Origin: Planctomycetaceae bacterium
GTDB lineage: Bacteria > Planctomycetota > Planctomycetia > Pirellulales > UBA7805
Assembly (NCBI GenBank): GCA_902630355.1
Contig: CACOUL010000002.1
Coordinates: 59,605 to 123,604, forward strand
Length of the DNA stretch: 64,000 nucleotides
Reading direction: 5' to 3'
The notes beneath the pieces were generated by a model. That model searched no databases and was not told where the DNA came from. It was given only the letters and a program-made list of their open reading frames with translations. Below, piece after piece: positions 16,923 through 42,790 of the stretch (position 1 is the stretch's first letter; each line of letters opens with the position of its first letter). The position numbers and the translations under genes are program-made.

Positions 16923-17456
16923 CTAGCGATCGCTCGTTCGCGGCACGCGTCCGATCACTTGCGTATCGTTGACCCGCCGGCGATGTCCCGTGGGCCGCGT
17001 GTTGTAAGAATGCCCTTTGAGCCGATTGGCACTGTAGCCACCGTGCGCGCTCCGTCGGACCGGTCCGCCGACACGAGGGTCTTCCAGGCCTCTACCACTG
17101 CCACCGGCACTCTGGCGACCTTGCGGAGATCCCTGCCGCGCCTGCCGCTCTTGCTCCAGTTCCTTTTGCTGCTGTTCGAGCTGGTACTGTTGTTCCTGCA
17201 GCTTGGCTCGATCGGCCGTAATGCCCGCTCGGGTTTCTTGCTCCTGCTTGACAAAGTTGTAACGCATGAAGGCAGGGCCGAGCAACGGATTCACCATATT
17301 GACGTAGGGACTCACCTTCGGGCGCGTGTAGAAGTCAGGCTGGCTAGGGTTGTACCGATCCTGCGCGTCTGCCGGGCCGTTGATTCCAAGCACCAGTAAA
17401 CCGAGACCACCCCAAAGAATAAAATCGCCCAGCCAACCACGTCGATGAGTACGCAT
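16923..17456 (-). CDS. Secreted hypothetical protein with a Gln/Glu-rich coiled-coil segment
   Basis: Signal-like N-terminus GWLGDFILWGGLGLLVLGINGPADA, the coiled-coil segment KLQEQQYQLEQQQKELEQERQARQ, and a basic Gly/Arg-rich tail. It lies 73 bp downstream of the wza-like gene on the same strand. Confidence 0.5.
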   Translation of the reverse strand: MRTHRRGWLGDFILWGGLGLLVLGINGPADAQDRYNPSQPDFYTRPKVSPYVNMVNPLLGPAFMRYNFVKQEQETRAGITADRAKLQEQQYQLEQQQKELEQERQARQGSPQGRQSAGGSGRGLEDPRVGGPVRRSAHGGYSANRLKGHSYNTRPTGHRRRVNDTQVIGRVPRTSDR

Positions 17457-17529: not shown

Positions 17530-18888
17530 TTAATTTCTACTCTTGGCCTCGACGGTTGCCGCAGCCGGTAGCGTAACACCTCGCCGCAGACGGTTTTCCG
17601 CCGCCACCTCAGCCGGTGTGAGTTCGCGGAATTCAACATCGAGCAATCCGTAGTTGACCATCAGATAACCGTTGTCCGCCCGGACCACCGCAGCGGACCG
17701 GTTGGCAAGCAGGTCTTGGGCAATCACACCGCGATACCACTGCATCTGACCGCGATAGCGGAAGTGATAGACTGGGATTCCCGAGGGACTCGTGGCAACC
17801 TGCCGGATGTCGGTTTTGAGGCGGCGATCACTGAAGAAGTTACCGAAGTTGTTGTTGCCACTGTCGCGGAACGAACCTCCGAGGTTACGTATCGTGGCCG
17901 TTGCCAGGAACATGGTTCCAGCAATCCGCTCGACCGGGGCAGTGACTCGTGCAATCGTGGCGTCCAGTCGGTTCAATTCGCTGGCGCGGATGTAGATGCG
18001 ATCACCCGGAAAAACCTGGTAGTTTGTCGCCGTGATCCCCTGCTTGCAGATTGCATCCCAATTGACCGGGAGCCGCTGCTCGTAGCCACCGTGATCCGGA
18101 CTCGGTCGGGCAATCCAGATATCTTTGGTCGCCTGGCCACCGAGGCCGCCGATTTCACTGATGGCATCCAAGACCGTTTCGCCACCATTGATCGGTAAGC
18201 GCACCACCTGATCACCCAATCCCGCACCGTCGGAAATGACGTAATAAAATTTACTGTTGTAGGCCGACACATCGACGATCACTTCGGGCGCTTCGAGATA
18301 CTCGTCGAGTTTCTTCTCGATCGCATCTTTGACCTGTTCGAGGGTCAGGCCGGCGACATAGACCTGCCCGTAGGACCCTAAATTGACCATCCCGTCCGGG
18401 GCCACCTGATGTTCTCCGGCAATCTGTTGGCTGCCGGCCGTCTCTAGCAGATTGACCGTGGTAACCGGATTGACCAGAAGTTCGAGCAGTTTGTCCTGAA
18501 TGGCCGTTTCGGCTTCGTCGATTGTCTTGCCTGATATCGTCACTTTTCCATATTGGCTGCCCAAATTGACGCGACCACTCGCATCGATTTGGTATTCCCC
18601 TGTGATCGGATAATCGGGAAGCACGTTCTCCGATTCGATCTGGACGATATCGAGCGGCTCGAGACGATAAGGCGCTTTGGGAATCACCCTCAACGCATCG
18701 ATCAGCAAAATGTCGGGCGGTTCGACCACATACAACGGAAGCGTTGTTTTAAACTCTTCGTTGGGAATGCGAGCCTCGGGTGGAATATGCTGTTCGAGTT
18801 TGAAATTGCGCGTACCGAGCGTATGGCAACCGGTCGCAAAAGCGACGAGAACAGAAAGAGCCAGCAGAAAGGCCGGTTTTGCTCGCAT
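17530..18888 (-). CDS. Outer-membrane polysaccharide export lipoprotein (Wza/OPX-like, SLBB repeats) fused to a C-terminal Peptidase-S74 intramolecular chaperone domain
   Basis: Lipobox LVAFATG|C and the Poly_export-like YRLEPLDIVQIES. SLBB-like repeats appear as GRVNLGSQYGKVTISGKTIDEAETAI and GMVNLGSYGQVYVAGLTLEQVKDAI. The C-terminal segment SDRRLKTDIRQVATSPSGIPVYHFRYRGQMQWYRGVIAQDLL...YLMVNYGLL is the S74 signature. Confidence 0.85.
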   Translation of the reverse strand: MRAKPAFLLALSVLVAFATGCHTLGTRNFKLEQHIPPEARIPNEEFKTTLPLYVVEPPDILLIDALRVIPKAPYRLEPLDIVQIESENVLPDYPITGEYQIDASGRVNLGSQYGKVTISGKTIDEAETAIQDKLLELLVNPVTTVNLLETAGSQQIAGEHQVAPDGMVNLGSYGQVYVAGLTLEQVKDAIEKKLDEYLEAPEVIVDVSAYNSKFYYVISDGAGLGDQVVRLPINGGETVLDAISEIGGLGGQATKDIWIARPSPDHGGYEQRLPVNWDAICKQGITATNYQVFPGDRIYIRASELNRLDATIARVTAPVERIAGTMFLATATIRNLGGSFRDSGNNNFGNFFSDRRLKTDIRQVATSPSGIPVYHFRYRGQMQWYRGVIAQDLLANRSAAVVRADNGYLMVNYGLLDVEFRELTPAEVAAENRLRRGVTLPAAATVEAKSRN

Positions 18889-19371: not shown

Positions 19372-20286
19372 ATGAACACTGCTTCCGAAAGCACACTTGG
19401 GCCAACCAAGCCAATCCCCACCGTCTCGCTTGCCATCTTGATCGGCTTGTTGGGGATTCTCTGCTATTCCTTTTACAACTCACTCTCGCGACTCTGGCTC
19501 GTCTTCTGGAATACCGATGAGTATTCACACGGTTACATCGTGCCGGTGATCGCGGCCGTACTCCTCTACATGCGGTGGAAACCAGAATATCTGGAGAGTC
19601 TCCGGAATATCGCACCCTCCGCAAAAATCTGGGGAATCCTTCTGCTCTCACTCGGGCTGGTATTGCGTTTGTTGGCCACCCGCATGGGCATGGAAACACC
19701 CGATATGATTGCCTTTCTTCCATGCCTGGCAGGCGTCGTTTTGATGGCCGGAGGCTGGACCCTTTTTCGCTGGGCCGGCCCGATCATTCTCTTTTCTGTA
19801 TTTATGTTTCCGCTTCCGCACCGCATTCAGCAGGCGATCCTCGTTCCCATGAAAGAGGTTGCCACGACGTGCAGTTTCTATCTTTTACAGATTATGAACT
19901 TCGATACCTCGAGGGAGGGCAATATTCTCTTCATTTCGGGAATTCCTATGGGGGTGGTCGACGCTTGCAGTGGCCTGCGGATGCTCACTGTCTTTCTTGC
20001 GCTTTGCGGAGCGGTTGCCATGACGATCAACAAACCGCTTTGGGAGCGGACTCTGATCTTTCTGAGTGCCATCCCGATCGCAATCGCGGTCAACGTACTG
20101 CGCATTACATCGACTGGCATCGCGTACTCGATTGCCGGTGAAGATAGCGACTGGGTGCACTATGTGTTCCACGACAATGCAGGGTTGATGATGATGCCGC
20201 TGGCCATGGTGATGCTCTATCTGGAAATCGCCCTGTTGGGCATGCTGTTTATTGACGAAGACCTTCCGGCAACAAGTAGCGAATGA
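19372..20286 (+). CDS. Exosortase (EpsH/Xrt family transpeptidase)
   Basis: Polytopic membrane protein with the family catalytic signature: Cys in VVDACSGLRML, Arg in AVNVLRITS and His in FHDNAGLMMM. The ATG at 19372 (MNTASES) is preferred over the track start at 19240. Confidence 0.85.
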   Translation: MNTASESTLGPTKPIPTVSLAILIGLLGILCYSFYNSLSRLWLVFWNTDEYSHGYIVPVIAAVLLYMRWKPEYLESLRNIAPSAKIWGILLLSLGLVLRLLATRMGMETPDMIAFLPCLAGVVLMAGGWTLFRWAGPIILFSVFMFPLPHRIQQAILVPMKEVATTCSFYLLQIMNFDTSREGNILFISGIPMGVVDACSGLRMLTVFLALCGAVAMTINKPLWERTLIFLSAIPIAIAVNVLRITSTGIAYSIAGEDSDWVHYVFHDNAGLMMMPLAMVMLYLEIALLGMLFIDEDLPATSSE

Positions 20287-20606: not shown

Positions 20607-22958
20607 ATGGCACCTCCAGAAGACGATCATTCGGGCGAAAGCCAAGAAGGACAACCGAACTCGAGCAAGGGTGAACTCGGTCCAGTTCGCGAGGATGCGA
20701 CCGGTACGGCACTGCAGACTGCGGAAATGCCGGGCGGTCCACTGGTCCCGTTGAGTACCCGGCCGAAGATTCTCACCGTGCCTCCGAATGTCACCGAAAT
20801 TTTGAATTCATTCCGTAGGCAATGGCGTCTGGCGGTCATTCTGGGGATTTCCTTCGCCATTCCCGTGGGATTGGCAACATGGTTTTTGGTGCCCATTCAA
20901 TACACCGCACAGTCGCTGATGCAGTCGAGAAGCAACACGCTTATTTTCGACGATTTACAGAATGCCGAAGAGAGTGGTTGGGAAGCGCAGGAACAACTGA
21001 TCCGCGGCTTCCAGGTTCTCAATACGGCGCTGAACGATGGCTTGATGGACCTTGAGTACATCAAGGAAGCTCAAAAAGATGGGATCGATCCGGTCGATTA
21101 TCTGGCGAAGACCCTGCTTATCACCGTACCGGATGATGAGAAAGAGCGTAAAGGATATGGTGGACAAATTCTCCGCATCGCGATGCAAGGGGATGATCCA
21201 CAGCAGCTGAAAAAGATTTTAGAGGCCGTTACCGATGCCTATCTCTCGCAAGTTGTCAATGAAGAGCGTCTGGAGTGGTTGAAGCAAAGAGACGAGTTGA
21301 AATCGCAATACGATCGCTCATCGGATATTTTGCGGATCAAACGTGAAGATTTACAGGTCTTGGCCAAGCAGGTCGGCACTTCCGACCCCGATACGGCAAG
21401 TGCGACTCAGCAACTGCTGATCGATCAGGTTCTTTATCTCCGTCGGCAGATCAGCGAAGCGCGGGAGCAAGTGGTCCAAAAAGACCGCGAGCTGAAAACC
21501 TACGAGCAGCAGGTCGGCTGGGTTGCTCACACAGGGAGCATCTTACCGGAAGATATCGAGGTAGAAATCGCACAGAATGAAGACCTGGCAGCGTATAACG
21601 AAAGGCTTGCCGAACTTGAGGAAGATCTGGAGACCTATAGGCAAATCTATCGGGATCCGAAAGCTGAGCCGATCCAGGCGCGCGAAAAGGTAATCGCCCA
21701 ATTGCAGGATGAACAGGCGGCTTTTGCCCAACAGCTGAGAAATGAGATCTTGGCATCCTTCCGTCGCGGCGAAAGGAAAAGCGATGTTGAATTGGAACAT
21801 GAACGACTCGCCGCAGAAGCGAATGAGTCGAAAGCGTATCTTGAAACATTGACGGCAGAGTACAAAGAATTGGCAGATGATGTCGAAGAATTGGCCAATT
21901 ATTCCGCTGAGCTTGAGACGAAGCGAGATGAACTCACCTTTCTTACCGAGGTCACCGGCGAGTTGGGTTACAAGCTGGAAAAACTCGAATTGGAACTCAA
22001 TGCGAATCAAGGGCGTGTGCGAAGAATTCCGGGCGGTATCCGCCAACCGAAAACGGGCGATACCAGCAAGCGAGACCAAATGACATTCGCTGCAACACTT
22101 GTGGCCCTGGCTCTGGGAATCGCTGTGCCGACGGGTCTCGACGTGATCAAAAGGAAGGTCTCAACGGTCGAACAAATGTCCGAGGGACTCGGGATCCGTG
22201 TCCTGGGCAATCTCCCGCTGCTCGATAAGCCCAAGCGAAAATGGGGTTTTCGAGCGCCCACTCCCGAAGCGATCGAGGAACTGCAGGTGGCGATGGAAGA
22301 GTCGATTGATGGACTCCGAGCCATGCTCTTACATCTCCCTGCGGCAAAGGATGTCCGCACCCTGATGGTCACTAGTGCGATTGAAAACGAAGGCAAGACA
22401 ACGCTCGCCTCCACGCTGGCAATGAGCATGGGACGGAGCGGTCGACGCACGCTGCTTATCGACGGAGATCTCCGACGACCATCCGCACATCGATTTTTGG
22501 AAATGCCGCTCGAGGAGGGCCTCGCCGAGGTATTGCGGGGTGACGTGGCGATCGAAAGGGCCATACGCCCCAGTCCGATGCCGGGTCTGCGGTTTCTCTC
22601 CGCCGGACACTGCGACCCCACGAGTCTGCAGGCGCTTACCAAAGATAATCTTGAAGAGGTTTTCGAGAAGGTAAGAGAAGAATTTGATTTTATTGTCGTC
22701 GACTCAGCACCCGTGCTTGCAGTCGTCGACGCCCTGCTTATCGGTAAACAGTGTGATGCGGCGATACTCAGCGTAACACGCGACAAGAGCCGCGTGGCGC
22801 CCATCTACGAAACCAGCGAAAGGTTGCGGGCGACGCGGATTCCCGTACTCGGTTGTATCTTTAACGGAAAGCAATCCAGCGTATTTGCACCCGATTACTA
22901 CGCGTATGGGTACAGTCCGGCAGCGGTTGCGACAGAGGACACCTCCGATGAAGCATAG
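20607..22958 (+). CDS. Polysaccharide co-polymerase / BY-tyrosine autokinase (Wzc/GumC/EpsG-like)
   Basis: Wzz-like N-terminal domain with a TM segment and a long coiled coil. The second TM segment (FAATLVALALGIAV) precedes a kinase domain with Walker A ENEGKTT, A-prime LLIDGDLRRP and Walker B DFIVVDSAPVL. The C-terminal Tyr cluster reads APDYYAYGYS. Confidence 0.9.
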   Translation: MAPPEDDHSGESQEGQPNSSKGELGPVREDATGTALQTAEMPGGPLVPLSTRPKILTVPPNVTEILNSFRRQWRLAVILGISFAIPVGLATWFLVPIQYTAQSLMQSRSNTLIFDDLQNAEESGWEAQEQLIRGFQVLNTALNDGLMDLEYIKEAQKDGIDPVDYLAKTLLITVPDDEKERKGYGGQILRIAMQGDDPQQLKKILEAVTDAYLSQVVNEERLEWLKQRDELKSQYDRSSDILRIKREDLQVLAKQVGTSDPDTASATQQLLIDQVLYLRRQISEAREQVVQKDRELKTYEQQVGWVAHTGSILPEDIEVEIAQNEDLAAYNERLAELEEDLETYRQIYRDPKAEPIQAREKVIAQLQDEQAAFAQQLRNEILASFRRGERKSDVELEHERLAAEANESKAYLETLTAEYKELADDVEELANYSAELETKRDELTFLTEVTGELGYKLEKLELELNANQGRVRRIPGGIRQPKTGDTSKRDQMTFAATLVALALGIAVPTGLDVIKRKVSTVEQMSEGLGIRVLGNLPLLDKPKRKWGFRAPTPEAIEELQVAMEESIDGLRAMLLHLPAAKDVRTLMVTSAIENEGKTTLASTLAMSMGRSGRRTLLIDGDLRRPSAHRFLEMPLEEGLAEVLRGDVAIERAIRPSPMPGLRFLSAGHCDPTSLQALTKDNLEEVFEKVREEFDFIVVDSAPVLAVVDALLIGKQCDAAILSVTRDKSRVAPIYETSERLRATRIPVLGCIFNGKQSSVFAPDYYAYGYSPAAVATEDTSDEA

Positions 22959-23055: not shown

Positions 23056-23760
23056 GTGTCTCGCTGGATACCACTACTGGTCGCAATTCCTTTGATAGGC
23101 TTGAGCACCTATCTCCAAGGATCGTGGACCGATCGCTGGTCTGATGAAAGCGATCTCCAAATGGCGAAGACCTCCAAGCGGTACGCCGACATTCCTCTCA
23201 CAATCGGTGACGGTTGGGTGGGTGAAGAGATGCCCTACTCCAAGAAAGAACTCGAGGCTGCTGGAGCACACGCACACCTGTCGCGCGTTTATCGCCATCG
23301 AAAAACGGGCGAGCGAATCACCGTATTCATGATCTGTGGATATGCGCGGGATGTTGCGGTTCATACGCCAAATTATTGTTATGTGGGTGCCGGGTTCGAG
23401 GTGGAGAATCCTCCAGTGACGTTTGCCGTCGAGATGGACGAAGGCGAGAACCCAATGACGTTTCAGACCACGACGTTTCTCAAGGAACGTCCTCTCGGCA
23501 CGATTCATCAGCGTATCCTTTGGGGCTGGACCGGAGGGGAACCGTGGAATGCACCCGACTACCCGCGTTGGAAGTATCCCGGCAACTCAACACTCAACAA
23601 AGTCTATCTCATCCACGACATTCCGCCCGGAATCGAACGCAAGCCGGACACCCTCACGCAGGAGCATCCGGCGGTCGAGTTCGGACGCGAATTTCTGCCC
23701 ATCGTTCGCGACGTACTCTATGCCCCGCAAGCTTCCAATAATAGCCTCAGCCAGGAATGA
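23056..23760 (+). CDS. Exosortase-associated EpsI family protein
   Basis: N-terminal anchor MSRWIPLLVAIPLIGL, the EpsI-type PLTIGDGWVGEEMP, and the conserved VHTPNYCYVGAGFE block. Confidence 0.8.
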   Translation: MSRWIPLLVAIPLIGLSTYLQGSWTDRWSDESDLQMAKTSKRYADIPLTIGDGWVGEEMPYSKKELEAAGAHAHLSRVYRHRKTGERITVFMICGYARDVAVHTPNYCYVGAGFEVENPPVTFAVEMDEGENPMTFQTTTFLKERPLGTIHQRILWGWTGGEPWNAPDYPRWKYPGNSTLNKVYLIHDIPPGIERKPDTLTQEHPAVEFGREFLPIVRDVLYAPQASNNSLSQE

Positions 23761-23839: not shown

Positions 23840-25750
23840 ATGTGGTCCGGCAAGGGGCAATTCTCGTTTGGACAGAGGGAGTGTTTCGTGCGCTCTAATC
23901 GCTTGCGTCGATCAGTTCTACGTCGCGTTCCACAGGGTTTCACGCTTGTGGAACTCATGGTGGTCATCGCAATCATTGCCATTCTGACCGCCCTGCTGAT
24001 CCCTGCGGTCTCCATGGTACGCAGCTCCTCCCGCCAGACAGAGTGCGCGTCGAACTTGCATCAAATCGGCATGGCAGTGATCAACGCAACCACGGCGGGA
24101 AAACGGCTGCAGCCGGGCAAATTAGTTCAGGCATCAGATCAAGAAAACCCGATCAATCTCGGCATGCCGCGCTTGCTTGAAGACCATATGGATAAAAATT
24201 ATTCGATCTTCAAGTGTCCCTCGGTCACCGGGGAAGAAGTCGGCTATGAGACAACGGTTCACTTTGGATTCAACGGTCGTCTGGGGCGGCTCACCAGCAA
24301 CGATGCGGGCAAAGTGATTGCGATGGACTACGGAAAGGAGATCATCGACTGGACCGATGACGCCGAGTGGGACAAGTACGACTCGGAATGGACCGGCAGT
24401 GGCATAGCGCCCCTCAGGCGTCATTTCGATGGCTGTAATGTGGTCTTCTTTGATGGACATGTGGAAAGGATGGATCCGGATACGATAAGGCACGGTAAAT
24501 CTCACGATACGGCCTACGAAAATGCAACCGAATACTGGGCTCCCGAACTCGATGAGAAACGTTATGTGCAACCGGTAAACGGGTCAGGAGGTGACGGCAA
24601 CTCCGAACCGGGCGGGGCCTGGGATGGTCCTCCGGTACCGATCCCCAACATCGTGGGGGCAAGCAGCAGTTCGGGCGGAGAAGCCGATACGGGCGGGCAG
24701 GGTTCCAAATACCACCCGGAGGTTGACCCCAATGATCCCGGGAGAAAATACACTGGTGACACCAACACGTACGGCGCGAGTGTGGGTCAACCGGAGCCTT
24801 GTGAGTTTCTTCTCGTGATCGACAACGAGGATCCGGGATTCTCGAAGACCACCAACAAACTCGCGAACAAAAATGACGACACGGCAATGAATGGTAGCCA
24901 TTTTCGCGCCTACGCAAAGTTTTTCACCAGTGGAGAAGCGCGCTGGAGTGCGGCCGATCTACGGGCGGGAACTTATAAGGTCAGTGCCTCGTGGGGCACG
25001 ACGGAGAAACCGCGATTTAATGCGGTGGCCTATCTGTTGACTTCAGACACGGAAACGCAGTCGATCACAATCAATCAGAATTTAGATTTTGAATGGACCG
25101 ATGACGAAGGACGTGGGTGGACCGATTTGGGTCAAGTGGTCGTTGGCGAGGGTGGCACCCTGGATGTGCAGATGCCCGCGGTGAACACAACAGTTGGACA
25201 TCGCGTATGTGCTGACGCCATGCGGTTCGAAATTATTGAATGTGCCGACAGTGGTGGAGGCGGGGGTGGCAACGATGCTCCCGCCGAGGAGGAGCCTGAG
25301 GAACCGGTGGATGAGTATGTCGCAACAATGGACAATGAGGACGCCGCGTTTTCGCGAACTTCTTCCGTCTTCAAGAAAAAGCTCGACGCGACGGCAATCA
25401 ACGGCCATCAATGGATGGCTTATGCCAAGAATTTTACTCACGGAGAAGCGCGGTGGAGCTTTACTGATGTCCCTGAAGGCAGCTACCGGGTCAGCGCCAC
25501 ATGGGGCACTACCGATAAGCCTCGCTACAACGCAGTCGCCTACAATCTCGTTTCGGATATCGATAGTCAAACAGGAACGATCAATCAAAATATCGCCTTC
25601 GAGTGGAACGGCGATGACGGAGTGGGTTGGACCGATGTGGGACAAGTGAACGTGGGTGCGGGAGGGACGCTGGATGTGGTGATTCCGCCGGTCAATTTCA
25701 GTAAATACCACCGCATCATGGCCGATGGCATCCGGATCGAAAAGCAGTAG
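23840..25750 (+). CDS. DUF1559/H-X9-DG pseudopilin-like protein with two tandem C-terminal Golvesin/Xly-like carbohydrate-binding modules
   Basis: Prepilin site PQG|[24 protein letters not shown] and H-X9-DG motif [16 protein letters not shown] linker leads into two ~145-aa homologous modules ending ...CADAMRFEI and ...[10 protein letters not shown]. Confidence 0.8.
24800..25747 (+). repeat. Intragenic tandem duplication of a ~145-aa module (24800..25243 and 25316..25747) separated by a Gly6/acidic linker
   Basis: The copies align residue by residue. [12 protein letters not shown]...[36 protein letters not shown]...[35 protein letters not shown] matches [12 protein letters not shown]...[36 protein letters not shown]...[35 protein letters not shown]. 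Confidence 0.85.
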
Positions 25751-25885
25751 GGCCGAGGCAACACAGATTGAGCCCACAGATCAGGTCAGGGCGGTCAGAG
25801 CGAAGGGGCGGAGAGAACGGGAACTGCGTGCCGTACGTTCATCGAGAGACGTGAACCGATTTCTCGCTGCGGACTCCGCAAAGAA

Positions 25886-27835
25886 ATGCCCGTTTGTAAT
25901 CGGAGAGTACTGAATATGAAGATTGCATCCCGCTTTGTGATCCCCTCGTCTGAAAAAAATGCGCACAAAGTCCAATGCGGCAACATGCGCGGGTTCACCC
26001 TCGTTGAGCTCCTGGTCACCATGTGCGTTTCTCTGATGCTGCTCGGGGGCGTGGTCTCCCTCTTTGGATCGCTCGGTGAAAGCGTCAACGACAGCAAATC
26101 GGATACGGAAATGCTGCAGACCATGCGACATGCGGGACAGAAACTCGCCAGCGATCTGGGCAACATGTCGCTCACACCCGATCCGGCCCAGACGATTGTC
26201 GACCCACAAGGTTTTTTTGAATATGTGGAAGGACCGGCAAGTGACGCGATGCCGATTATTTCCAGCGGAGATGAACAACAACAACAAGTAGACCCAGATA
26301 GCCCCTGGTTCGTCGATGACGAGGACACCAACTACACCGAGGATCGACCTGAGGGAGTGACAAAAAACATTGGCCTCTCCAAAGCGGGCGGACCGCAAAA
26401 CAAAGCCTCATACAACAATAAAGCACGCAGAGCCTATTCAAAATACATGCACGGATACGGTCAGTGGAAGAAAACGGGGCTGAAGCCGGGGGTGTATCGC
26501 GTCAGTATCCATTGGCCTACTGGCTGGAGCAGTAACTGGGCGAGCAAGCATGAATCCAATGTTCCGGTCACCATCACGTCGGGCAGCAATACCGAAAGTG
26601 TGACGATCAACCAAACTCAGGTGCCGAGTGATTACGAGGATCCGGAAAAGGTCGATGGCAATGGAAATCCGATTGATTGGCATCACCTGGCGGAGATCGA
26701 GGTAGGAGCAGACGGTGAAATTGTGGTGCAGATTGGCCCCTGCGGTCAGGGTTACCCCAGCGGTAAATTCGTTTTTGTGGACGCCATCCGCATCGAATGT
26801 CTGGAGTTGACCGGTGGAGGAGGCGACGGTGGGCAAAAACTTGAGTTGATGGGCGACTGCGATGATGTACTCCACTTCACCACCAAGACCGACAATGGGG
26901 CCCATGAAGTGGTCTGGTTCTGTACGCCGATGGCTCCTTACAAGCCTGGTGACAAGCCCACTGAAGAAACGCGTTATCGTTTGCACCGCATACAACTGAA
27001 TGTCAATCCTGAAGAGACAGACATGGGCGCAGAGGATCTATCCAAAGGAGTTGTGTTAGATTCGAAAACGCTACTGCCATTAAACGGCACCGTGACACCT
27101 AAGGCGAATTCTTTACGAGATCTAGCAATACGTGCCAATCGTTGGGGCCATATTAACGGTGCGAGTGGAGAATTTTCGCAATTCCAACCTATTCCTGTGG
27201 AAGATTACACCGATCCAACCAACCTTTTCACTTATATGAAAGCGATGGGGGATGACTGTGGTCTGGGCGACGCACAGATGGACCACGAAGGCTGGCCCCT
27301 GGATCAAAATGTGTATGAAACATGGCTCAAAGAAAGCGGAAAAACCGTGATCCTTGAAAACGTGATCGCCTTCGACGTTCGCAGATACGATCCCCAAGCG
27401 GCACTCTACCAGGCAAGCGTTCTCTCGAACGATGCATACCAGAGGAGTTTGGCTGAAGGAGCAACCACGCCTACACCGAGAACCATTGCGCTGGGCCCGA
27501 GTGATCCCGGGTATGCAGCCGCACAAAGCACAGGAACCCTCGTTGGCCGCGGTGCGTTTATCGATTTAAATCCCGGCACCGATCCGAGTTCGCCGCTGCA
27601 GCCCGATGCGGCAGGCAACAAAACGTACGACTCCTGGTCCGGACAATACGTCACTTCGGGCGAAGTCGGTTTCGATAACGATGACGATGGAGTGATCGAT
27701 ACGGCGGAAGACCTGAGGCAACCTCCGCCCTACGCTGACGCGACCAGAGCGATTCAGGTGGAAATACGTGTGATCGAGCCCAAAAGTGGAAGCGTACGGA
27801 CCATGAAGATTCACAAGTACCTGGGAGAGAAATAA
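25886..27835 (+). CDS. Prepilin-type (PilW/GspJ-like minor pseudopilin) protein with one Golvesin/Xly-like module and a large C-terminal domain
   Basis: Prepilin site NMRG|FTLVELLVTMCVSLMLLGGVVSLF. A third copy of the module lies at about 26303..26803 (FVDDEDTNYTE...PGVYRVSIHW...VTINQ...WHHLAEIEVGADGEIVV...FVDAIRIEC). The start is uncertain: 25886, 25916 or 25985. Confidence 0.7.
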   Translation: MPVCNRRVLNMKIASRFVIPSSEKNAHKVQCGNMRGFTLVELLVTMCVSLMLLGGVVSLFGSLGESVNDSKSDTEMLQTMRHAGQKLASDLGNMSLTPDPAQTIVDPQGFFEYVEGPASDAMPIISSGDEQQQQVDPDSPWFVDDEDTNYTEDRPEGVTKNIGLSKAGGPQNKASYNNKARRAYSKYMHGYGQWKKTGLKPGVYRVSIHWPTGWSSNWASKHESNVPVTITSGSNTESVTINQTQVPSDYEDPEKVDGNGNPIDWHHLAEIEVGADGEIVVQIGPCGQGYPSGKFVFVDAIRIECLELTGGGGDGGQKLELMGDCDDVLHFTTKTDNGAHEVVWFCTPMAPYKPGDKPTEETRYRLHRIQLNVNPEETDMGAEDLSKGVVLDSKTLLPLNGTVTPKANSLRDLAIRANRWGHINGASGEFSQFQPIPVEDYTDPTNLFTYMKAMGDDCGLGDAQMDHEGWPLDQNVYETWLKESGKTVILENVIAFDVRRYDPQAALYQASVLSNDAYQRSLAEGATTPTPRTIALGPSDPGYAAAQSTGTLVGRGAFIDLNPGTDPSSPLQPDAAGNKTYDSWSGQYVTSGEVGFDNDDDGVIDTAEDLRQPPPYADATRAIQVEIRVIEPKSGSVRTMKIHKYLGEK

Positions 27836-27877: not shown

Positions 27878-28678
27878 TTAATCTGTCGCCGCAGGCTCGG
27901 CGGTGATTTTTTCAATTTGCGCCGGCACGCGCTGCTTCCAATACTCGTAAAGCCGCGTATCGTACCGGTTGTCTGCCGCGAGACGCGATTCAAGTTCGGG
28001 AGTCAAATCCAACCTTCTGGAAAAATTGCGGCCCGTCGCATTGCGCTTCTCGACCTCGCCTTCGATCCCGATCCGCCGGGCAATAATTGGCATATCTGCA
28101 CTCAGTGATTCGGTGCAGCCGACAAACCAGAAATCTTTGAGCGCTTTTTGAACCTGACTGAAAACCCATCCCCCAGATCCAAGGTGGAGCGGGTAGCGTG
28201 CAAATCGTTGTCCTTGCGCTAAGGCAATACCGAGGCGATGGCTGATGACCCGCTTGGCAAGAAACTTGGTCATCACGTCCCGCTCCTGATATCGGTACCA
28301 CGTCTCAAAAGGCGTTTGCTCATCCCACCGCGTAAAGGGCGCCGCATCGGACGTTTCATAATTAAATGCCGAGACGATCCGACTCGCCGGACTGCGAAGA
28401 AATGTGATCCGGCGGGCGATGCGATCCGGAAACAATCGCTCGGTCCGCATGAACACATCGTGACCGGTGATCACCCGGACTTTTGCCCGTTCCTCGCGCG
28501 ATCGTTTTTCAATCGACAAGCGGCCATGCTCCGCGTCGTCTTCCTGACCCGCGAGGCCCAGATCAATAAAATCGATCCCTCGCGAGAGCTTTTCATTCAA
28601 TAAATGGTTGATGCTGATGCCACCAGTCTTGGGCACGTGAAAAAAAATAAAGACTTCGCGCGAAGGAGACTCGACCAT
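27878..28678 (-). CDS. PAPS-dependent sulfotransferase (Sulfotransfer_2-like family)
   Basis: Shows the 5-prime-PSB motif FFHVPKTGGISI, the 3-prime-PB motif FLRSPASRIVSAFNY and the terminal DTRLYEYW. It is the last gene of the long minus-strand operon. Confidence 0.8.
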   Translation of the reverse strand: MVESPSREVFIFFHVPKTGGISINHLLNEKLSRGIDFIDLGLAGQEDDAEHGRLSIEKRSREERAKVRVITGHDVFMRTERLFPDRIARRITFLRSPASRIVSAFNYETSDAAPFTRWDEQTPFETWYRYQERDVMTKFLAKRVISHRLGIALAQGQRFARYPLHLGSGGWVFSQVQKALKDFWFVGCTESLSADMPIIARRIGIEGEVEKRNATGRNFSRRLDLTPELESRLAADNRYDTRLYEYWKQRVPAQIEKITAEPAATD

Positions 28679-28714
28679 GTGTTTCGACCTAGCAGTAAAT
28701 CTGTTCTCTCGTGC

Positions 28715-29881
28715 TTATTCGACCTTCCGCCATGCTGCGGACTGGGCTCCGGCGAGAAAGGCAAAAAACCCGAAAATCGAACCCAGGTTGGCAGTGACAA
28801 AATAAAAGGGAATGGCCGTGAGCGGTAGGTACCAGTGCATGCGATCGGCCAAAAGCCCGAGGAGCGCCGTAAAATAGAATGCGATTTGTATCCAAAGTGT
28901 CCAAAAATAGAACGGGGCATCGCCCCCCAGACTCACGAGCAGGATATTCGCTGCCAGGGCCAACAAAAGAAACCAGGGTACGAGTACTGGCATCACCGAG
29001 TGAGAAAAATAGATCCAAAATCGTGCGATCGGCCAAGGAAAAAGCATCCGTGGAAAACGGAAAAAGTTCTGATACTTTCCCGATTGACTGCGAACCTTCT
29101 GCCTGAAAAAACGTCGCGTTTGCTGCAGCACATCACCACGGGCTACCGCTTCAGGTTCAAAGATCACGCGCTTGCCCTGCTGAATAATGCCCAGCGGTAC
29201 CGCCACATCGTCGTTGATCGTATTGTTCACCGGCGGCACAAACCACTCTCGCCTCGCTGCGTAAATCGTACCGTCGCACATGCAAATGGTAGAAAGACGA
29301 CTTTCAATCGACTGCAGCAAGCGTTGAAAGCGCCAGTAAAAGCGTGTCCCGACACCCATGCCCGACTTTTCTTCATTGTAAATGTGATTCCCGGTGACCG
29401 CCCCAATCTGTGGATCGGCAAAGTGGCGGGTAAGTTTAAGGATCACATCGCGGTCAAAAAGTTCGGAGATGTCAGAAAAAACACACACTTCGCCGGTCGC
29501 TTCTGCCACTAACCGATTTACCACCGACATTTTGCCTCCCCGCTCGGTGTAGGGAAACAAGCGTACTCCCTGTGATACGAAGGTCTCTGCAATTTCGTTG
29601 GTGCGATCCTCCGAAGCATCTGAGCCGACGAGTATTTCTACCTTTTCCGATGGATAGTCGAGGGCGAGACAGTTTTCGAGTTTTTCGCGAATACAATCTT
29701 CTTCATTGTACGCCGCCAGAATGATGGAAACCGTTGGCTGAAAGCTGTCGACGGATTGACTTGCCGGTCGCAAAAGCAACGGCCGAATCAGCAGCAGTAG
29801 TATGGGGTAGATAATGTAGGGATAAATAATTGCTACTGCGGCAACCCAGAAACTCCAAAACCAGAAATCAGTCACGCCCAT
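28715..29881 (-). CDS. Membrane-integrated family-2 glycosyltransferase (synthase-like topology)
   Basis: An N-terminal TM segment is followed by the GT2 core VSIILAAYNEE...VGSDASEDRT...NDDVAV. A degenerate Q/RxxRW-region (RQKVRSQSG) precedes about four C-terminal TM helices. Confidence 0.85.
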   Translation of the reverse strand: MGVTDFWFWSFWVAAVAIIYPYIIYPILLLLIRPLLLRPASQSVDSFQPTVSIILAAYNEEDCIREKLENCLALDYPSEKVEILVGSDASEDRTNEIAETFVSQGVRLFPYTERGGKMSVVNRLVAEATGEVCVFSDISELFDRDVILKLTRHFADPQIGAVTGNHIYNEEKSGMGVGTRFYWRFQRLLQSIESRLSTICMCDGTIYAARREWFVPPVNNTINDDVAVPLGIIQQGKRVIFEPEAVARGDVLQQTRRFFRQKVRSQSGKYQNFFRFPRMLFPWPIARFWIYFSHSVMPVLVPWFLLLALAANILLVSLGGDAPFYFWTLWIQIAFYFTALLGLLADRMHWYLPLTAIPFYFVTANLGSIFGFFAFLAGAQSAAWRKVE

Positions 29882-29904
29882 CCCCTTACGTCTCGTAATA
29901 AATT

Positions 29905-31569
29905 TTATTCAATTTTTTTCGGTGGCACGCCTTGCTCTACGCCATCGGTCCATGACCGCAAAAGTTCGAGATCAATCCCTGGAGGCGTGCCGTCGGAGCC
30001 CAGTAATTTTTGTCCTGGCGATGTACTCATCAGGCGAAAATCTCCAACGGAAGGATCGACAAAACCGACGTCAGTCGCACGGGGAACAACAATATTTTCA
30101 GGTGGGTAGCTTTGTCCATGCACATCACCCACCAAAATATTATCTCGAAATGTCCACTGTTGCAGATATTTTTCAATGCTTGTTATGCCTGGTGTACTAT
30201 CTCTGCCATGAAATCCCACCTTACCGAGGGAAAAAATATTTTTTTCAAAAACAAATCCTTTAATAACCTTTCCAGACGACCCAATCAGCGTCAGTGCTTT
30301 ACCATGCCCCGGCACAAACAAGCCTACATTGTGAATGATTTTTACGTTCTGAGCCGGCTTCCGATCAGCACTTCCATCCAATTCAAAAAACGCTCGCAAT
30401 CCTCTGGAATTATTTTCCGCCACCTGAAGGATCAAATTATTGCGGATAAGAATATTTTTGACACTTTTACTCGGTTTATCTTGTTCGCCATCCGAGGAAA
30501 TGATTTGCAAAAAACCATTGATGTTCCGCAAAACATTATTCTCAAACACAATATCTTCCACCGTGACCCAGGGAGCCTTGCCATTCTGGTTACGCGGCGT
30601 GAAAAGGATTGCTTTGCCGGTTTGACCTGCCGGCCAACAATTTTCAAAAACGTTTCCGCGGACGATCGCCCTTTTTGCACATTTAAATTCGAGAAGATTT
30701 TTTATAATCCATCGCTTTGTGTAGTCCGGATGCCCTTTTTGCCAGCGGAGAGGTTTAAAAATATGATTCCGTTCGATCAGAATGTCGGCAGGAACCATTT
30801 GGTCGATTTTGGGATCGGCGCCACCAAAAGCGATATTTTCTCCCGCGCCTTCGAGAAAATTATTCACTATTTTGAAGGGCCCGGGCCCGTTGATGCCAAG
30901 GAGTGCCTGGGCCTCTGAACCCTTGTCGTGGAATTCGGAAAAATAGCTGTCAAATACCGCAATCTCCCGCGTATTCATTGTGATACCGGTGCGGACGGAC
31001 CCCGTCGGATTGCCGTGGATGTAGCATCGCTCGAAAACGAGCTTAAATGGTAATTCATCCACCGCCATTGCATGTGCTCTGCCCTTTAATTTGTCGAATC
31101 CCAACCTCACAAGATCGTAACACATATCCGTCTTGGTCGTAATTTCAATGCCGACAAAGTGGTAATGGTGCGCACCAAGTTCGGCTGTCACTGCCGGGTT
31201 GGTATTTTCTGTGTAAACTTTCGGCATGTGGACTGCGTCTTCAGGTCGCACTCGGTATCCTACGGGTGGCAAATCCTTGAGATCGGAAGACCTAATCGTG
31301 ATCCACGGACTTTGCCCCTCGGCCAATTGCCCTGTTTTGTTCGGCAAGATCACAGGCCCTCTAAACTCGGCGCCCGCCTGGAGCACCAGATGGTCACCCG
31401 GTTGGGCATCACGCAGTGCCGCATTGAGGTCATCATCTCCCGTGAGATTGATTACCCTACTCGGTGGCGGCGCTGCGACGGATTCGCACCGTGACTGAAG
31501 CGCGAAACAGAGAGCACTCCAGAATAGAATCCGCATCGCAATCATCGGAAACAGAAATTGGTAGTTCAT
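29905..31569 (-). CDS. Secreted right-handed parallel beta-helix repeat protein (candidate polysaccharide lyase/epimerase/hydrolase)
   Basis: Signal-like N-terminus MRILFWSALCFALQSRCESVAA. Asn-ladder rungs recur: VNNFLEGAG, IERNHIF, VRGNVFENC, FENNVLRNI, IRNNLILQV, IIHNVGLF, FEKNIFSL and FRDNILVGD. GC is markedly lower than in the neighbouring genes. Confidence 0.7.
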   Translation of the reverse strand: MNYQFLFPMIAMRILFWSALCFALQSRCESVAAPPPSRVINLTGDDDLNAALRDAQPGDHLVLQAGAEFRGPVILPNKTGQLAEGQSPWITIRSSDLKDLPPVGYRVRPEDAVHMPKVYTENTNPAVTAELGAHHYHFVGIEITTKTDMCYDLVRLGFDKLKGRAHAMAVDELPFKLVFERCYIHGNPTGSVRTGITMNTREIAVFDSYFSEFHDKGSEAQALLGINGPGPFKIVNNFLEGAGENIAFGGADPKIDQMVPADILIERNHIFKPLRWQKGHPDYTKRWIIKNLLEFKCAKRAIVRGNVFENCWPAGQTGKAILFTPRNQNGKAPWVTVEDIVFENNVLRNINGFLQIISSDGEQDKPSKSVKNILIRNNLILQVAENNSRGLRAFFELDGSADRKPAQNVKIIHNVGLFVPGHGKALTLIGSSGKVIKGFVFEKNIFSLGKVGFHGRDSTPGITSIEKYLQQWTFRDNILVGDVHGQSYPPENIVVPRATDVGFVDPSVGDFRLMSTSPGQKLLGSDGTPPGIDLELLRSWTDGVEQGVPPKKIE

Positions 31570-31593
31570 ACAGCGATGGTGTGTGTACTTGCG

Positions 31594-32700
31594 TTAAGGA
31601 ATACCGCGCACAATCGGGGGACCAATCCGGCGAGTGAGCCAAACCGGAAGTCTCTGCCACGTCTTGATCATCAGGCGATACTTTCCACTCTCGGGTCGCA
31701 TCTCCGAAATGCCACCCTTGCGATCATAATATTGCCAAACTGCTGGTTGGCTCTCGGCGCCCCATTGTTTTTTGAAGCGAAAAGTATTGCTCTGCTGGCT
31801 GCTGCGGCCAAAATCAAACGTATGCTGCCCACGTTCAATTGCCCGGCATAGCAATTGCCAATACATCAACATATTCGGATTTTGAGAGTTAAACTCTCGA
31901 AGCGCACTCGCGCTCGGTACCTGGGTCATCCCAGGGGCATGAATCAATAGCGCGCCGGCGATGGGCCTGCCCGCTGTCATCAGCGTACAAAATTCCGCTT
32001 GCTCTGGATACTCTTCAAGGATCGCCGCAAACAAATGAGGGCTGAAAACAGGCGTACCAAGATCGCGCATATTACGACTAAAAACTTGATAGAAAGTATC
32101 GAGTCGCTCTAAACCACCCCACTCGATTTCAAAGTTCTGCTTCTCACCCTTACGTACTTGATTGCGAACCTTGGGGCTCAGTCCTTTCCACAATTCTTCC
32201 GAAGAGGATGGAAGCGGGAGCCGCATGTGGACTTTATCCGTTCGCTGCTGGTTTAACTGCGGGTGCGAGACGGGCATCTCATGACGCAACTCGAGATAGC
32301 GCACATCCAACTCATCGGCCAAATCAACGGCCCTCGCGACAAGCGCCGAGGTCGCTTCGTTATCTGATGAAATGACTCCGGCCGTGTTCACATAGGGTAG
32401 CGAGACAAGAAATTTTCCAAAATAAATCGAGCGAATAAACGAAAGTGGCAAGACACCGACCCAGCGATCACCCCGCTTCGCGACGAGTCCGTAAGGCACA
32501 TGCTTCAGGCCTCGACTCGTTGCCCACAGCCATCCGAGATCACTACAAAAACCTTCAAGTTCGCCCGCGAATGCGCTCCACGATTCGGAAAATTTCTTGT
32601 CATTCAGGGCATCGCCCGAGACCAATTCGATGTGCAGCGCGTCGATTGAAGTCATAACTGCTGGCTCGGGACTGCAAGGTGGTCTCGAATCATCCCGCAC
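31594..32700 (-). CDS. FemAB-family (GNAT-fold) protein of the PEP-CTERM/exosortase-associated type
   Basis: Length is about 368 aa. The C-terminal block NPNMLMYWQLLCRAIERGQHTFDFGRSSQQSNTFRFKKQWGA is typical of the FemAB-related EPS-locus family. Confidence 0.75.
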   Translation of the reverse strand: MRDDSRPPCSPEPAVMTSIDALHIELVSGDALNDKKFSESWSAFAGELEGFCSDLGWLWATSRGLKHVPYGLVAKRGDRWVGVLPLSFIRSIYFGKFLVSLPYVNTAGVISSDNEATSALVARAVDLADELDVRYLELRHEMPVSHPQLNQQRTDKVHMRLPLPSSSEELWKGLSPKVRNQVRKGEKQNFEIEWGGLERLDTFYQVFSRNMRDLGTPVFSPHLFAAILEEYPEQAEFCTLMTAGRPIAGALLIHAPGMTQVPSASALREFNSQNPNMLMYWQLLCRAIERGQHTFDFGRSSQQSNTFRFKKQWGAESQPAVWQYYDRKGGISEMRPESGKYRLMIKTWQRLPVWLTRRIGPPIVRGIP

Positions 32701-32709
32701 ATGCTTTTG

Positions 32710-34008
32710 CTATGCGTTGACTCGCTCGTGATCGGGGGTCACCAGGCATCGCCTCAGATCGACAATCTCGTCTTCACTGCGCGCCTTGAGGTCAACGTCA
32801 TCTGCAATATCGTTACCGAGAACCAGCAATTCACCGTGCGAAAGCAATTGATCCAATTCTTCTACCAACAGAGCCGCCAGGTGGGGTAATCGCTGATCGA
32901 TATAAGCCAGATTGCGACCCTTTAGGCGACTGATTGAAATGCCGGGGTCGAAAATTTTAACGTCGTATCCACGACCGATCAACGTTTCGACCAAAGTAAC
33001 AAACGGACTTTCCCGCAGATCATCAGTGCCTGCCTTAAAGCTGAGCCCAATCAGCCCAATCTTCTTTTTACCCCGATCTTCAATTAAGCGAATTGCGCGG
33101 TCCAAGTGTTCCTGATTGGACGGTAAGATCGATCGCAATAAGCTCACTTTCATGGCGGCCTCTTCCGCATGTCGCGTCAGCGCGCGTAAATCCTTTGGCA
33201 AGCAGGATCCGCCAAAAGCAAATCCCGGTCGCAAGTAAGCTCGCGATACATTGAGCTTCGTATCGCGACAAACCAAATCCATCACCTGCTGTCCATCGGC
33301 ATCGAAAGAACGTGCGAGGGCACCAATTTCATTGGCAAAGCCGATCTTAGCGGCATGGTACGCGTTGCAAGCATACTTAAGCATCGCTGCGGTGGCAGTG
33401 TCGGTAACCACTTTCTCAGCATCAATACTACGATAGAGATTCAACACTTCTTCTCCGGCTGCCGGGTTTGAGGCTCCGGCAATCACAAACGGCGGAGCAT
33501 CGTAATCCCGAATTGCCACACTTTCACGAAGAAACTCGGGGTTGTTGCAAATCTGAATACGGTCACCCAGTACGGAGTCTGCGGACTCCGCCAAAAGTGG
33601 CGTCAAGCGATTTTCCAGGATTCCTGGCAACAACGTCGAACGAACGACGACGTTGTAGGATTGATCAGTCCCACGCAACGACTGTCCGATCGATTCAATT
33701 ACCTTTTCAACTGCTATTGTTGAAACCGCTCCCGTTCGATCGGATGGAGTTCCCACGGCAATCATCGCAATATCCGTTTCGGCAATCGCCTCACGAAAAT
33801 CCTCTGTTGCTCGCAATCTGCCCGCAGCAACTTGCTCGGCCACCAACTCGGCAAGACCCGGTTCGGCAACAGGCGAATCGCCCGCATTCAAAGCAGCGAC
33901 TTTCTCGGCGTCGATGTCGACGCCGATTGTCTGAAAGCCATCACGACTCAAACAGGCAGCCGTGACACATCCCACATAACCGGTTCCAAATACAGCAATG
34001 CGACTCAT
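32710..34008 (-). CDS. Nucleotide-sugar 6-dehydrogenase, AlgD-like (probable GDP-mannose 6-dehydrogenase)
   Basis: Contains FGTGYVGCV (NAD), NPEFLRESVAIRDYDAPP, KLNVSRAYLRPGFAFGGSCLPKDLRALT and GLIGLSFKAGTDDLRESPFVTLVETLIGRGYDVKIFD. These blocks are collinear with the AlgD blocks as I recall them: NPEFLRESTAIKDYD, GGSCLPKDVRAL and SFKAGTDDLRESP. Confidence 0.8.
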   Translation of the reverse strand: MSRIAVFGTGYVGCVTAACLSRDGFQTIGVDIDAEKVAALNAGDSPVAEPGLAELVAEQVAAGRLRATEDFREAIAETDIAMIAVGTPSDRTGAVSTIAVEKVIESIGQSLRGTDQSYNVVVRSTLLPGILENRLTPLLAESADSVLGDRIQICNNPEFLRESVAIRDYDAPPFVIAGASNPAAGEEVLNLYRSIDAEKVVTDTATAAMLKYACNAYHAAKIGFANEIGALARSFDADGQQVMDLVCRDTKLNVSRAYLRPGFAFGGSCLPKDLRALTRHAEEAAMKVSLLRSILPSNQEHLDRAIRLIEDRGKKKIGLIGLSFKAGTDDLRESPFVTLVETLIGRGYDVKIFDPGISISRLKGRNLAYIDQRLPHLAALLVEELDQLLSHGELLVLGNDIADDVDLKARSEDEIVDLRRCLVTPDHERVNA

Positions 34009-34085
34009 TTAATTTGCTTCCTCATTCCGACCCGAAGGTTCTTCAAAAATGAAAAGTAAGTATCCTCTCCATCCCACTCTCTATC

Positions 34086-35282: not shown

Positions 35283-35304
35283 TTGACGACTGGTTGGCCC
35301 ACTT

Positions 35305-41360: not shown

Positions 41361-41384
41361 AAAACTAGAGATTTCTTTCCTGGC

Positions 41385-42776: not shown

Positions 42777-42790
42777 TGCGGATCTCTTTG

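Follow-up and report, generated by a model that had tools for sequence, protein, structure and literature searches.

The 64,000-nucleotide stretch analysed here (the window, part of contig CACOUL010000002.1) comes from an uncultured marine planctomycete and carries two genes for pilin-like proteins, pilin 1 and pilin 2, that close an operon of an exosortase (Xrt), a Wzc-like kinase and the exosortase-associated protein EpsI (Table 1). An earlier note, made from the bare sequence, had read both products as prepilins displaying three Golvesin/Xly-type carbohydrate-binding modules (CBMs) beside a machinery for exopolysaccharide (EPS). As stated there, the two open reading frames (ORFs) have the coordinates given, share the orientation of the exosortase, Wzc-like and EpsI genes and follow at intervals of 79 bp (23760 to 23840) and 135 bp (25750 to 25886); the identity of the three neighbours is borne out by Pfam and NCBIfam scores. 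The exosortase passes the generic model TIGR02602 but scores only 117.4 against a cutoff of 208 with the XrtA-specific model, and by these curated cutoffs is not an XrtA.

Table 1. Features of the pilin and exopolysaccharide (EPS) locus, with coordinates in the 64,000-nucleotide window (aa, amino acids; pLDDT, predicted local distance difference test score; scores are followed by model cutoffs where given)
Feature	Coordinates	Strand	Evidence or description
Pilin 1: divergent DUF1559/H-X9-DG prepilin, G/S/P-rich linker, two tandem Golvesin_C modules	23840..25750	+	636 aa
Pilin 1, class III signal peptide and N-methylation motif, residues 32-53	23933..23998	+	PF07963 32.6 bits; TIGR02532 30.2 bits
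Pilin 1, H-X9-DG motif, residues 194-209	24419..24466	+	TIGR04294 21.3 vs cutoff 19
Module 1 (Golvesin_C / CBM6-35-36-like_2 beta-sandwich)	24800..25243	+	PF25275 42.0 bits; pLDDT ~75-86
Module 2, tandem duplicate of module 1	25316..25747	+	PF25275 32.7 bits; pLDDT 80-90
Pilin 2: large planctomycetal minor-pilin-type scaffold, one inserted Golvesin_C-type module	25886..27835	+	649 aa
Module 3, divergent long subtype	26303..26803	+	blastp to module 1 E 3e-13; PF25275 16.4 bits
Exosortase (EpsH family, unclassified subtype)	19372..20286	+	PF09721 E 6.8e-53; TIGR02602 119.8 vs cutoff 105.55
Wzc-like chain-length determinant / tyrosine autokinase	20607..22958	+	TIGR01007 129.8 vs cutoff 108; AAA_31
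EpsI (DUF3485), exosortase-associated	23056..23760	+	PF11984 44.5 vs cutoff 26.1
Terminator-like hairpin and T-run just 3' of the pilin 2 stop	27884..27905	+	consensus scan only
15-gene EPS biosynthesis/export operon	27878..48585	-	convergent to the pilin genes
Wza-like outer-membrane polysaccharide export protein	17530..18888	-	Poly_export E 6.6e-24; TIGR03027 E 1e-18, under cutoff
Conserved 177-aa protein between upstream pilin genes and Wza	16923..17456	-	no Pfam/NCBIfam match
Second upstream prepilin-type gene	15998..16789	+	N_methyl 28.8 bits; TIGR02532 27.6 bits
Full-length DUF1559/H-X9-DG prepilin	14836..15696	-	PF07596 E 1.7e-22; TIGR04294 32 bits; GFTLVELLVV site

The prepilin site claimed for pilin 1 (PQG/FTLVELMVV, the slash marking the cleavage position) has Gly at -1, Phe at +1 and Glu at +5, and the N-terminus exceeds the cutoffs of both N_methyl (PF07963; 21.2) and TIGR02532 (16.3). 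Orthologs of pilin 1 begin at a position that matches GTG at codon 17. The H-X9-DG motif also passes its curated cutoff, though it is not C-terminal in this protein, where the linker and the modules come after it. The DUF1559 core ascribed to pilin 1 holds only in part: the Pfam model PF07596 scores 19.5 against a cutoff of 23.3 and aligns residues 60-82 only, but a profile-profile comparison (hhalign) of pilin 1 with 23 DUF1559 proteins gives a probability of 99.9% and an E-value of 1e-31 over DUF1559 positions 6-142 of 316, F-x-CPS included, an alignment limited to the N-terminal half. Based on this alignment and the TIGR04294 match, pilin 1 is a shortened, divergent DUF1559/H-X9-DG prepilin, to which a linker of ~75 residues and two modules add ~390 residues. 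An exact-sequence look-up of pilin 1 in public assemblies returned no record.

Pilin 2 is annotated in databases with a start 10 codons later, at 25916 (P0044, 639 aa). Its prepilin site (MRG/FTLVELLV) likewise has Gly at -1, Phe at +1 and Glu at +5, and reads MRG/FTLVELLVTMCVSLMLLGGVVSLF when the hydrophobic stretch is included. In both pilins the leader is short and basic, and ~20 hydrophobic residues come after the site. Pilin 2 falls marginally under the cutoffs of N_methyl (20.7 vs 21.2) and TIGR02532 (16.2 vs 16.3), and 15 of its 16 orthologs match N_methyl. The PilW/GspJ-like label given to this N-terminus was rejected as unsupported, since it obtains generic prepilin matches only, far under any equivalog cutoff. 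The scaffold consists of an N-terminal part of ~90 and a C-terminal part of ~160 residues and is common to module-free planctomycetal proteins of 440-760 aa, one of which is encoded in a five-pilin operon of Rosistilla ulvae. Module 3 interrupts this scaffold behind the N-terminal helix region and ahead of the conserved GDCDDVLHFTTKTD core.

The three modules are homologous, as had been proposed. Modules 1 and 2 are 57% identical (E 1e-60; 67% at the DNA level), and module 3 is 29% identical to module 1 (E 3e-13) and 30% to module 2 (E 6e-9). Their assignment to the Golvesin/Xly family stands for modules 1 and 2, both above the PF25275 (Golvesin_C) cutoff of 31.6, but not for module 3 taken alone, which stays below that cutoff (E 0.0096) with Golvesin_C still its top match; it is tied to the family by its blastp match to module 1 and by eight of the 16 pilin 2 orthologs, which match the model. 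AlphaFold predictions from the ortholog alignments are confident beta-sandwiches for all three modules, with pLDDT of ~75-90 in pilin 1 and 65-88 in pilin 2. Foldseek searches against the PDB placed a Paenibacillus xanthan lyase (PDB identifier 6f2p) at the top for both proteins (E 1.6e-12 for pilin 1 and 2.8e-4 for pilin 2), module 3 superimposing on it with a root-mean-square deviation of 3.7 Å over 173 columns. The next matches were CBMs of GH101, tandem CBM22, CBM51, malectin-like domains, CBM6 (PDB identifier 2cdo; template modelling (TM) score 0.58) and CBM35, and the best single-domain match was MiXBM (PDB identifier 7ehg; TM score 0.63). All significant structural neighbours of the modules are CBM or lectin-type domains, and the profile hidden Markov model (HMM) and fold comparisons agree with the Golvesin/Xly reading. 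Profile searches of both ortholog alignments against PDB sequences detected no solved relative of the modules: the matches of pilin 1 cover the N-terminal pilin helix only, and pilin 2 had none.

Xanthan-binding modules are present in both xanthan lyases, PXL (PDB identifier 6F2P) and MXL (MiXBM; PDB identifier 7EHG) (PMC10881899), xanthan binding by related modules has been measured with surface plasmon resonance (PMC10049358), and two Bacteroides proteins of this same domain family (Golvesin/Xly CBD-like, IPR033803) bind a defined N-glycan motif on arrays (PMC9166713). We had taken the C-terminal module of 6f2p for the founding member of CBM84; the literature assigns the characterised PspCBM84 to the xanthanase PspXan9 and lists CBM84-type modules also for the xanthan lyases, and we therefore speak of xanthan-binding modules only. 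HMM matches, predicted fold and literature together support the reading of modules 1-3 as CBMs, which would bind sugar.

Few members of this domain family have been shown experimentally to bind carbohydrate (PMC9166713), and the module turned up in 1,503 clusters (50% identity) when searched for exhaustively with a profile, mostly giant proteins with up to 11 copies. These multi-copy clusters point to a large, mostly uncharacterised family of repeat-lectin-like surface proteins; the giant members that we noted (P0076-P0223) are 1,000-7,900 aa long. Such facts, and the sub-cutoff score of module 3, would suit modules that bind no carbohydrate at all and act in protein-protein or cell-cell adhesion or as spacers, in which case the adjacency to EPS genes would be without functional meaning. 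We regard this as improbable, as the structural neighbours are all of CBM or lectin type and the closest bind xanthan, as the EPS-system synteny described below is kept in seven loci, and as 17 module copies share invariant Trp, Tyr, Gln, Asp, Arg and Glu residues (D328, G377, Y379, V381, W385, Q413, V435, G439, D459, R462 and E464 being the complete invariant set). A prepilin N-terminus was found in two of the 148 top module-bearing cluster representatives, both of them fragments of pilin 2 orthologs; the fusion of pilin and module is thus rare.

Pilin 1 has ~16 close relatives among 5.8 billion clustered proteins, all from marine metagenomes or metagenome-assembled genomes (MAGs), and occurs in two of 185,579 species-representative genomes, viz., a Pirellulales MAG (92% identity) and Planctomycetaceae TMED10. 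The order Wza / Xrt-Wzc-EpsI-pilin 1-pilin 2 / sulfotransferase-GT2 and further genes recurs in every related contig long enough to tell, in seven independent metagenomic loci (L001, L002, L003, L008, L009 and L010/L011). Among these, L010/L011 represent a more divergent lineage, in which exosortase, Wzc and pilin 1 are 66%, 53% and 34% identical to those of the window and the gene order is the same. Relatives of pilin 1 were found only in exosortase loci of this order. The synteny expected by the earlier note is therefore present, and the genetic coupling of pilin-lectin proteins to an exosortase locus that it proposed holds within the related clade, but not in general: three distant planctomycetal Xrt-Wzc-EpsI cassettes, whose exosortases are 43-49% identical to the one studied here, are without pilins and have sugar-nucleotide and EPS genes after EpsI. 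These cassettes rule out the pilin pair as a general feature of planctomycetal exosortase loci, and its coupling to the exosortase cassette is clade-restricted.

The pilins diverge faster than the neighbouring genes. Compared with the window, its closest relative, L008, has neighbouring genes of 96-99% identity but a pilin 1 of 92% and a pilin 2 of 75%, and across the set the pilin cores have a mean pairwise identity of 83-92% and the modules of 46-47%. The most informative comparison, a module identity matrix, reveals that in several genomes the modules of the two pilins are closest to each other: they are 84% identical in L010 (at most 35% to modules of any other genome), 64% in L001 (at most 52% elsewhere) and 62% in L002. 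The window and L008 are an exception, since in both the tandem modules of pilin 1 are of a distinct short subtype, only 28-31% identical to the pilin 2 module. In the L010 lineage the pilin 2 module sits at another position of the scaffold, behind the segment that trails it in the window protein; in P0059 (L010, 10001..12382) it lies between segments homologous to window residues 321-514 and 532-648. The similarity within genomes and the shifted insertion point point to exchange or re-acquisition of the module between the two pilin genes, and the tendency of both pilins of a genome towards the same subtype is the pattern expected of a shared, lineage-specific ligand. Thus, the data indicate repeated acquisition or exchange together with selection for a shared ligand.

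The number and arrangement of modules also vary, orthologs of pilin 1 having one module, two in tandem, or two joined by thrombospondin-type-3 Ca-binding repeats. In P0004 and P0005 (L003, 321..2735) the joining segment comprises ~100 residues of D-rich thrombospondin type 3 repeats and poly-Gly/Asp linkers. Two irregularities were seen in pilin 2 genes. That of L008 (7828..9666) has an indel-rich replaced segment in its C-terminal scaffold, resembling a hot spot where divergence or recombination is locally concentrated. That of L001 (11579..13582) is called at 475 aa, and tblastn homology to the window protein runs on for ~580 nt past the stop, which may reflect a frameshift, an assembly error or a pseudogene.

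Upstream of the exosortase operon, and divergent from it, lies the Wza-like gene, with two more prepilin-type genes just beyond it, so that the locus has four pilin-like genes. The full-length DUF1559 prepilin is the best GspG-like match of the locus (GspG N-terminus, 43 bits) and is conserved in L001 (52% identity) and in L012 (35%). The second upstream prepilin has homologues in L001 (47%), L010, L012 (28%) and the Rosistilla pilin operon (L013; 26%). All four pilin-like genes keep Glu at +5 and a full class III signal, features usually maintained for filament assembly. The 177-aa protein beside them is found at the same position in L001 (74% identical) and L010 (37%). The Wza-like exporter itself has a C-terminal Peptidase_S74 domain (residues 353-395, E 1e-6). 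This domain, also called the chaperone of endosialidase, is an intramolecular chaperone of phage tailspikes, and its presence on an outer-membrane exporter is an unusual fusion.

A consensus scan of the plus strand found no terminator-like site between 20300 and 27835, and the hairpin behind pilin 2 is the only strong terminator-like site on that strand downstream of the operon, which, with the short gaps between the genes, argues, if weakly, that those from the exosortase to pilin 2 probably form a single transcription unit. A promoter scan gave fewer sites than shuffled controls and was uninformative, and an Rfam scan of the whole window gave nothing. PEP-CTERM tails were absent, in a heuristic scan, from all stop-to-stop ORFs of the window, both pilins included. 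The pilins, lacking such a tail, are therefore not exosortase substrates.

The adjacent 15-gene operon mentioned in the earlier note is confirmed; it is on the minus strand and convergent to the pilin genes. Its products are a sulfotransferase, GT2 and GT4 glycosyltransferases, a UDP-sugar dehydrogenase, a FemAB-like and a heparinase II/III-like protein, two Asn-synthase-type amidotransferases, a Wzy-like protein, a Wzm/Wzt ABC transporter, a DUF3473 deacetylase and a priming transferase. The deacetylase (TIGR03006 377 vs cutoff 276) and the FemAB-like protein (TIGR03019 341 vs cutoff 260) are XrtA-system equivalogs. The Wzy-like protein (41385..42776) is a polymerase/ligase, and the Wzm/Wzt ABC exporter (44343..46714), which has a Wzt_C domain, stands with it in one operon; together with the sulfotransferase, the two amidotransferases and the heparinase II/III-like protein, they suggest a heavily modified acidic polymer, probably sulfated and amidated, with possibly two assembly routes.

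Several other genes near the locus deserve mention. Upstream of it, two giant tetratricopeptide repeat (TPR) proteins, adjacent and paralogous (3148..7542 and 7641..11981, both on the minus strand), are 1464 and 1446 aa long; both have an N-terminal membrane anchor and resemble the PrsT-type TPR proteins of PEP-CTERM systems. Proteins of 554 aa are encoded at 29905..31569 (minus strand) and 12580..14244 (plus strand) and have no Pfam or NCBIfam match; the former recurs at the same position in all related loci (49-69% identity) and belongs, though uncharacterised, to the core of the EPS operon.

Based on the prepilin sites, the module family and fold, the conserved gene order, the short gaps without terminator-like sites, the co-variation and divergence of the modules and the precedents given below, we hypothesize, with a probability of about one half, that pilin 1 and pilin 2 are glycan-binding modular minor (pseudo)pilins, co-expressed with the exosortase, Wzc and EpsI, which present three CBM-type modules on a type 4 filament or its tip and thereby tether, organise or guide the adjacent acidic EPS. 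A prepilin peptidase encoded elsewhere would cleave both proteins, and their N-terminal helices would anchor them in the inner membrane. Both would then enter a short type 4 filament as minor, probably tip-proximal, subunits, with the two upstream prepilins as plausible partner subunits. Pilin 1 would hold its two Golvesin_C/CBM6-like modules on the ~75-residue linker, and pilin 2 would display the third, scaffold-inserted one. The modules would bind glycan, the likeliest ligand being the product of the 15-gene operon, an acidic heteropolysaccharide, probably sulfated or amidated, that is presumably exported via Wzc and Wza. In this way the fibre would tether the cell's own EPS at the envelope, or organise or guide it there.

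A number of observations weigh against this hypothesis. Besides the three pilin-free cassettes and the sub-cutoff match of module 3, the modules are acidic (isoelectric point 4.3-5.6), like the predicted polymer, and binding would need Ca2+ bridges or neutral epitopes. The complete Wzc/Wza (plus Wzm/Wzt) export route of the locus needs no pilus. Module-bearing relatives also occur apart from exosortases: P0063 (L012), a relative of pilin 2, has none within 10 kb, and two other proteins that combine N_methyl with Golvesin_C (P0017 and P0022, ~980 aa) are away from any exosortase, beside a GH32 or a sulfotransferase gene. The neighbours of such exosortase-free proteins include GH32, a TonB-dependent receptor and sulfotransferases, which fits general glycan capture. 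Adhesion or capture pili for foreign glycans, algal or particle-associated, or for surfaces, would account for these cases, the link to EPS then being a co-regulated attachment or biofilm programme. The scaffold of pilin 2, with or without a module, belongs to ordinary planctomycetal pilin operons without an exosortase, the sole characterised lectin pilin, Streptococcus sanguinis PilC, has foreign (host) glycans as ligands (PMC9934059), and fast module evolution also fits changing external ligands. However, pilin 1 is found only in exosortase loci, in an arrangement that outlasts deep divergence, the pilin genes probably share a transcription unit with Xrt-Wzc-EpsI, and the nearest structural relatives of the modules bind a bacterial EPS (PMC10881899), so that we hold pili for foreign glycans to be a rather unlikely explanation.

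P0063 adjoins homologues of both upstream window pilins, and this context, together with the distribution of the scaffold, makes the upstream pilins and pilin 2 look like an independent pilin set that, in one marine clade, joined the exosortase cassette. The component specific to that association is pilin 1. A dCMP/cytidine deaminase gene stands beside the upstream pilin pair in L001 (1..342) and L012 (15526..16020), and directly after EpsI in the pilin-free cassette L016 (13108..13566). This recurrence offers a clue to how the pilin set became a neighbour of the exosortase cassette.

Three further points weigh against the favoured hypothesis and concern the filament itself. No pilus or type II secretion system ATPase, platform protein, secretin or prepilin peptidase was found in the 64-kb window. 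AlphaFold predicts a long N-terminal helix for both pilins, but their heads have a pLDDT below 50, with the C-terminal scaffold of pilin 2 also of low confidence, so that a pilin fold is only putative for them. Lastly, DUF1559 proteins number dozens per planctomycete genome (68 paralogs in Planctopirus limnophila) and have no known function (PMC10632474), so that filament assembly is not to be assumed for them. The prepilin N-terminus might then be a mere inner-membrane anchor, and the two proteins periplasmic polysaccharide-binding factors that pass nascent Wzy or ABC polymer to Wzc and Wza, or sense it. The missing filament machinery would be no obstacle to such a role, the 68 DUF1559/H-X9-DG paralogs are hard to square with all being pilus subunits, the long flexible linkers would suit a periplasm-spanning tether, and the pilin genes lie directly behind those of the periplasmic and inner-membrane components Wzc and EpsI. 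We nevertheless consider membrane-anchored binding factors an unlikely solution, given the Glu at +5 and the full class III signal kept in all four pilin-like genes and the occurrence of homologues of pilin 2 and of the second upstream prepilin in multi-pilin operons typical of minor-pilin sets.

It is also conceivable, if doubtful, that a pseudopilus with lectins at its tip, formed by the four pilin-like proteins, works as part of the exosortase/Wzc/Wza machine and physically grips the polysaccharide to extrude, position or anchor it. If true, this would provide direct molecular evidence for an action of pseudopili on polysaccharide, a long-suspected and unproven role that has been proposed for cyanobacterial Hps and for secretin-dependent slime secretion, and it would give a first function to a member of the DUF1559 expansion of Planctomycetota.

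DUF1559/H-X9-DG prepilins are the largest paralog family in planctomycetes, with unknown function (PMC10632474), and a member fused to glycan-binding-type modules in a defined context offers a testable functional foothold for the family. How pseudopilins of EPS loci aid polysaccharide secretion is an open question (PMC12475490), and CBM-type pilins encoded with an EPS exporter hint that filament and polymer are physically linked, which is open to assay and makes it directly testable whether pseudopili act on polysaccharide. The module shuffling, with its shared subtype per genome, varied insertion sites and one to three copies, is an unusually clear evolutionary signal and amounts to a natural experiment on ligand specificity. 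The EPS of marine Pirellulales bears on particle aggregation, and EPS-specific lectin modules could serve as probes. Against this it must be set that the arrangement is confined to a narrow uncultured clade and that every functional step is deduced.

The literature that we found on exosortases together with pseudopilins consists of archaeal reviews only, and we found no description of the arrangement; of the four papers in which DUF1559 appears, none is functional. Within the DUF1559/H-X9-DG family (PF07596, TIGR04294), pilin 1 shares the N-terminal helix, F-x-CPS and H-X9-DG, and differs from ordinary members by its shortened, divergent, sub-cutoff head and by the extra residues; the ordinary members retrieved are 350-430 aa long, and all but one have only N_methyl and DUF1559. 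The type II secretion pseudopilins GspG/H/I/J/K gave no equivalog match, the scores (GspG 27.4 vs cutoff 88.85; GspH 27.5 vs 80) resting on the N-terminal helix only. With the xanthan-binding modules (6F2P, 7EHG; IPR033803) the modules share the domain family by HMM and the best structural match. The xanthan-lyase modules bind a bacterial acidic exopolysaccharide (PMC10881899, PMC10049358) and are appended to degradative enzymes that are secreted, whereas those of the pilins have no catalytic domain beside them, and sequence identity between the two groups is just 16-17%. The locus resembles XrtA/PEP-CTERM loci in its exosortase, EpsI, Wzc-like and Wza-like proteins, in the XrtA-system deacetylase and FemAB-like protein at equivalog level, and in its amidotransferases, Wzy-like ligase, priming transferase and large TPR proteins. 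It departs from them in an exosortase that is not XrtA by the curated cutoff and in having no PEP-CTERM substrate in the window. Pilin genes, moreover, do not belong to the XrtA/PEP-CTERM system as described.

The closest precedents are two. In one of them, the hps locus of cyanobacteria, four pseudopilins (HpsB, HpsC, HpsD and HpsH) are encoded among genes for EPS, and the model by which hpsBCD and hpsH act as a piston through a secretin is speculation only (PMC12475490). Like the locus described here, hps has several prepilin-type genes, four in each case, within a locus for EPS synthesis and secretion, which gave rise to the idea of a pseudopilus working on polysaccharide cargo (PMC12475490). 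It is without exosortase, EpsI, Wzc and Wza, and the HpsC model NF038304 reaches 17.1 bits against a cutoff of 200, over the N-terminus only, so that there is no homology beyond the signal; the resemblance is thus one of genomic logic and not of family. Nor are Hps pseudopilins known to have carbohydrate-binding modules. The other precedent is PilC of S. sanguinis, a tip-located, lectin-bearing modular pilin that binds glycans (PMC9934059). As in PilC and PilB, a pilin with a class III signal has been grafted with a beta-sandwich lectin module (PMC9934059), and two modular pilins stand side by side with other minor pilins, their bulky modules arguing for a position at the tip. However, the lectin of PilC is concanavalin A-like and single, whereas the modules here are Golvesin_C/CBM6-like, with two in tandem in pilin 1 and one inserted in pilin 2. 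PilC belongs to the complete pil locus of a monoderm and binds host glycans, whereas the pilins here belong to an exosortase/EPS operon with no motor genes nearby, and the proteins have no sequence homology beyond the N-terminal helix. Lectin-bearing modular pilins and pseudopilins in an EPS locus are thus each known already, from PilC and hps, and this locus joins both concepts in a third phylum, with another lectin family and in an exosortase context.

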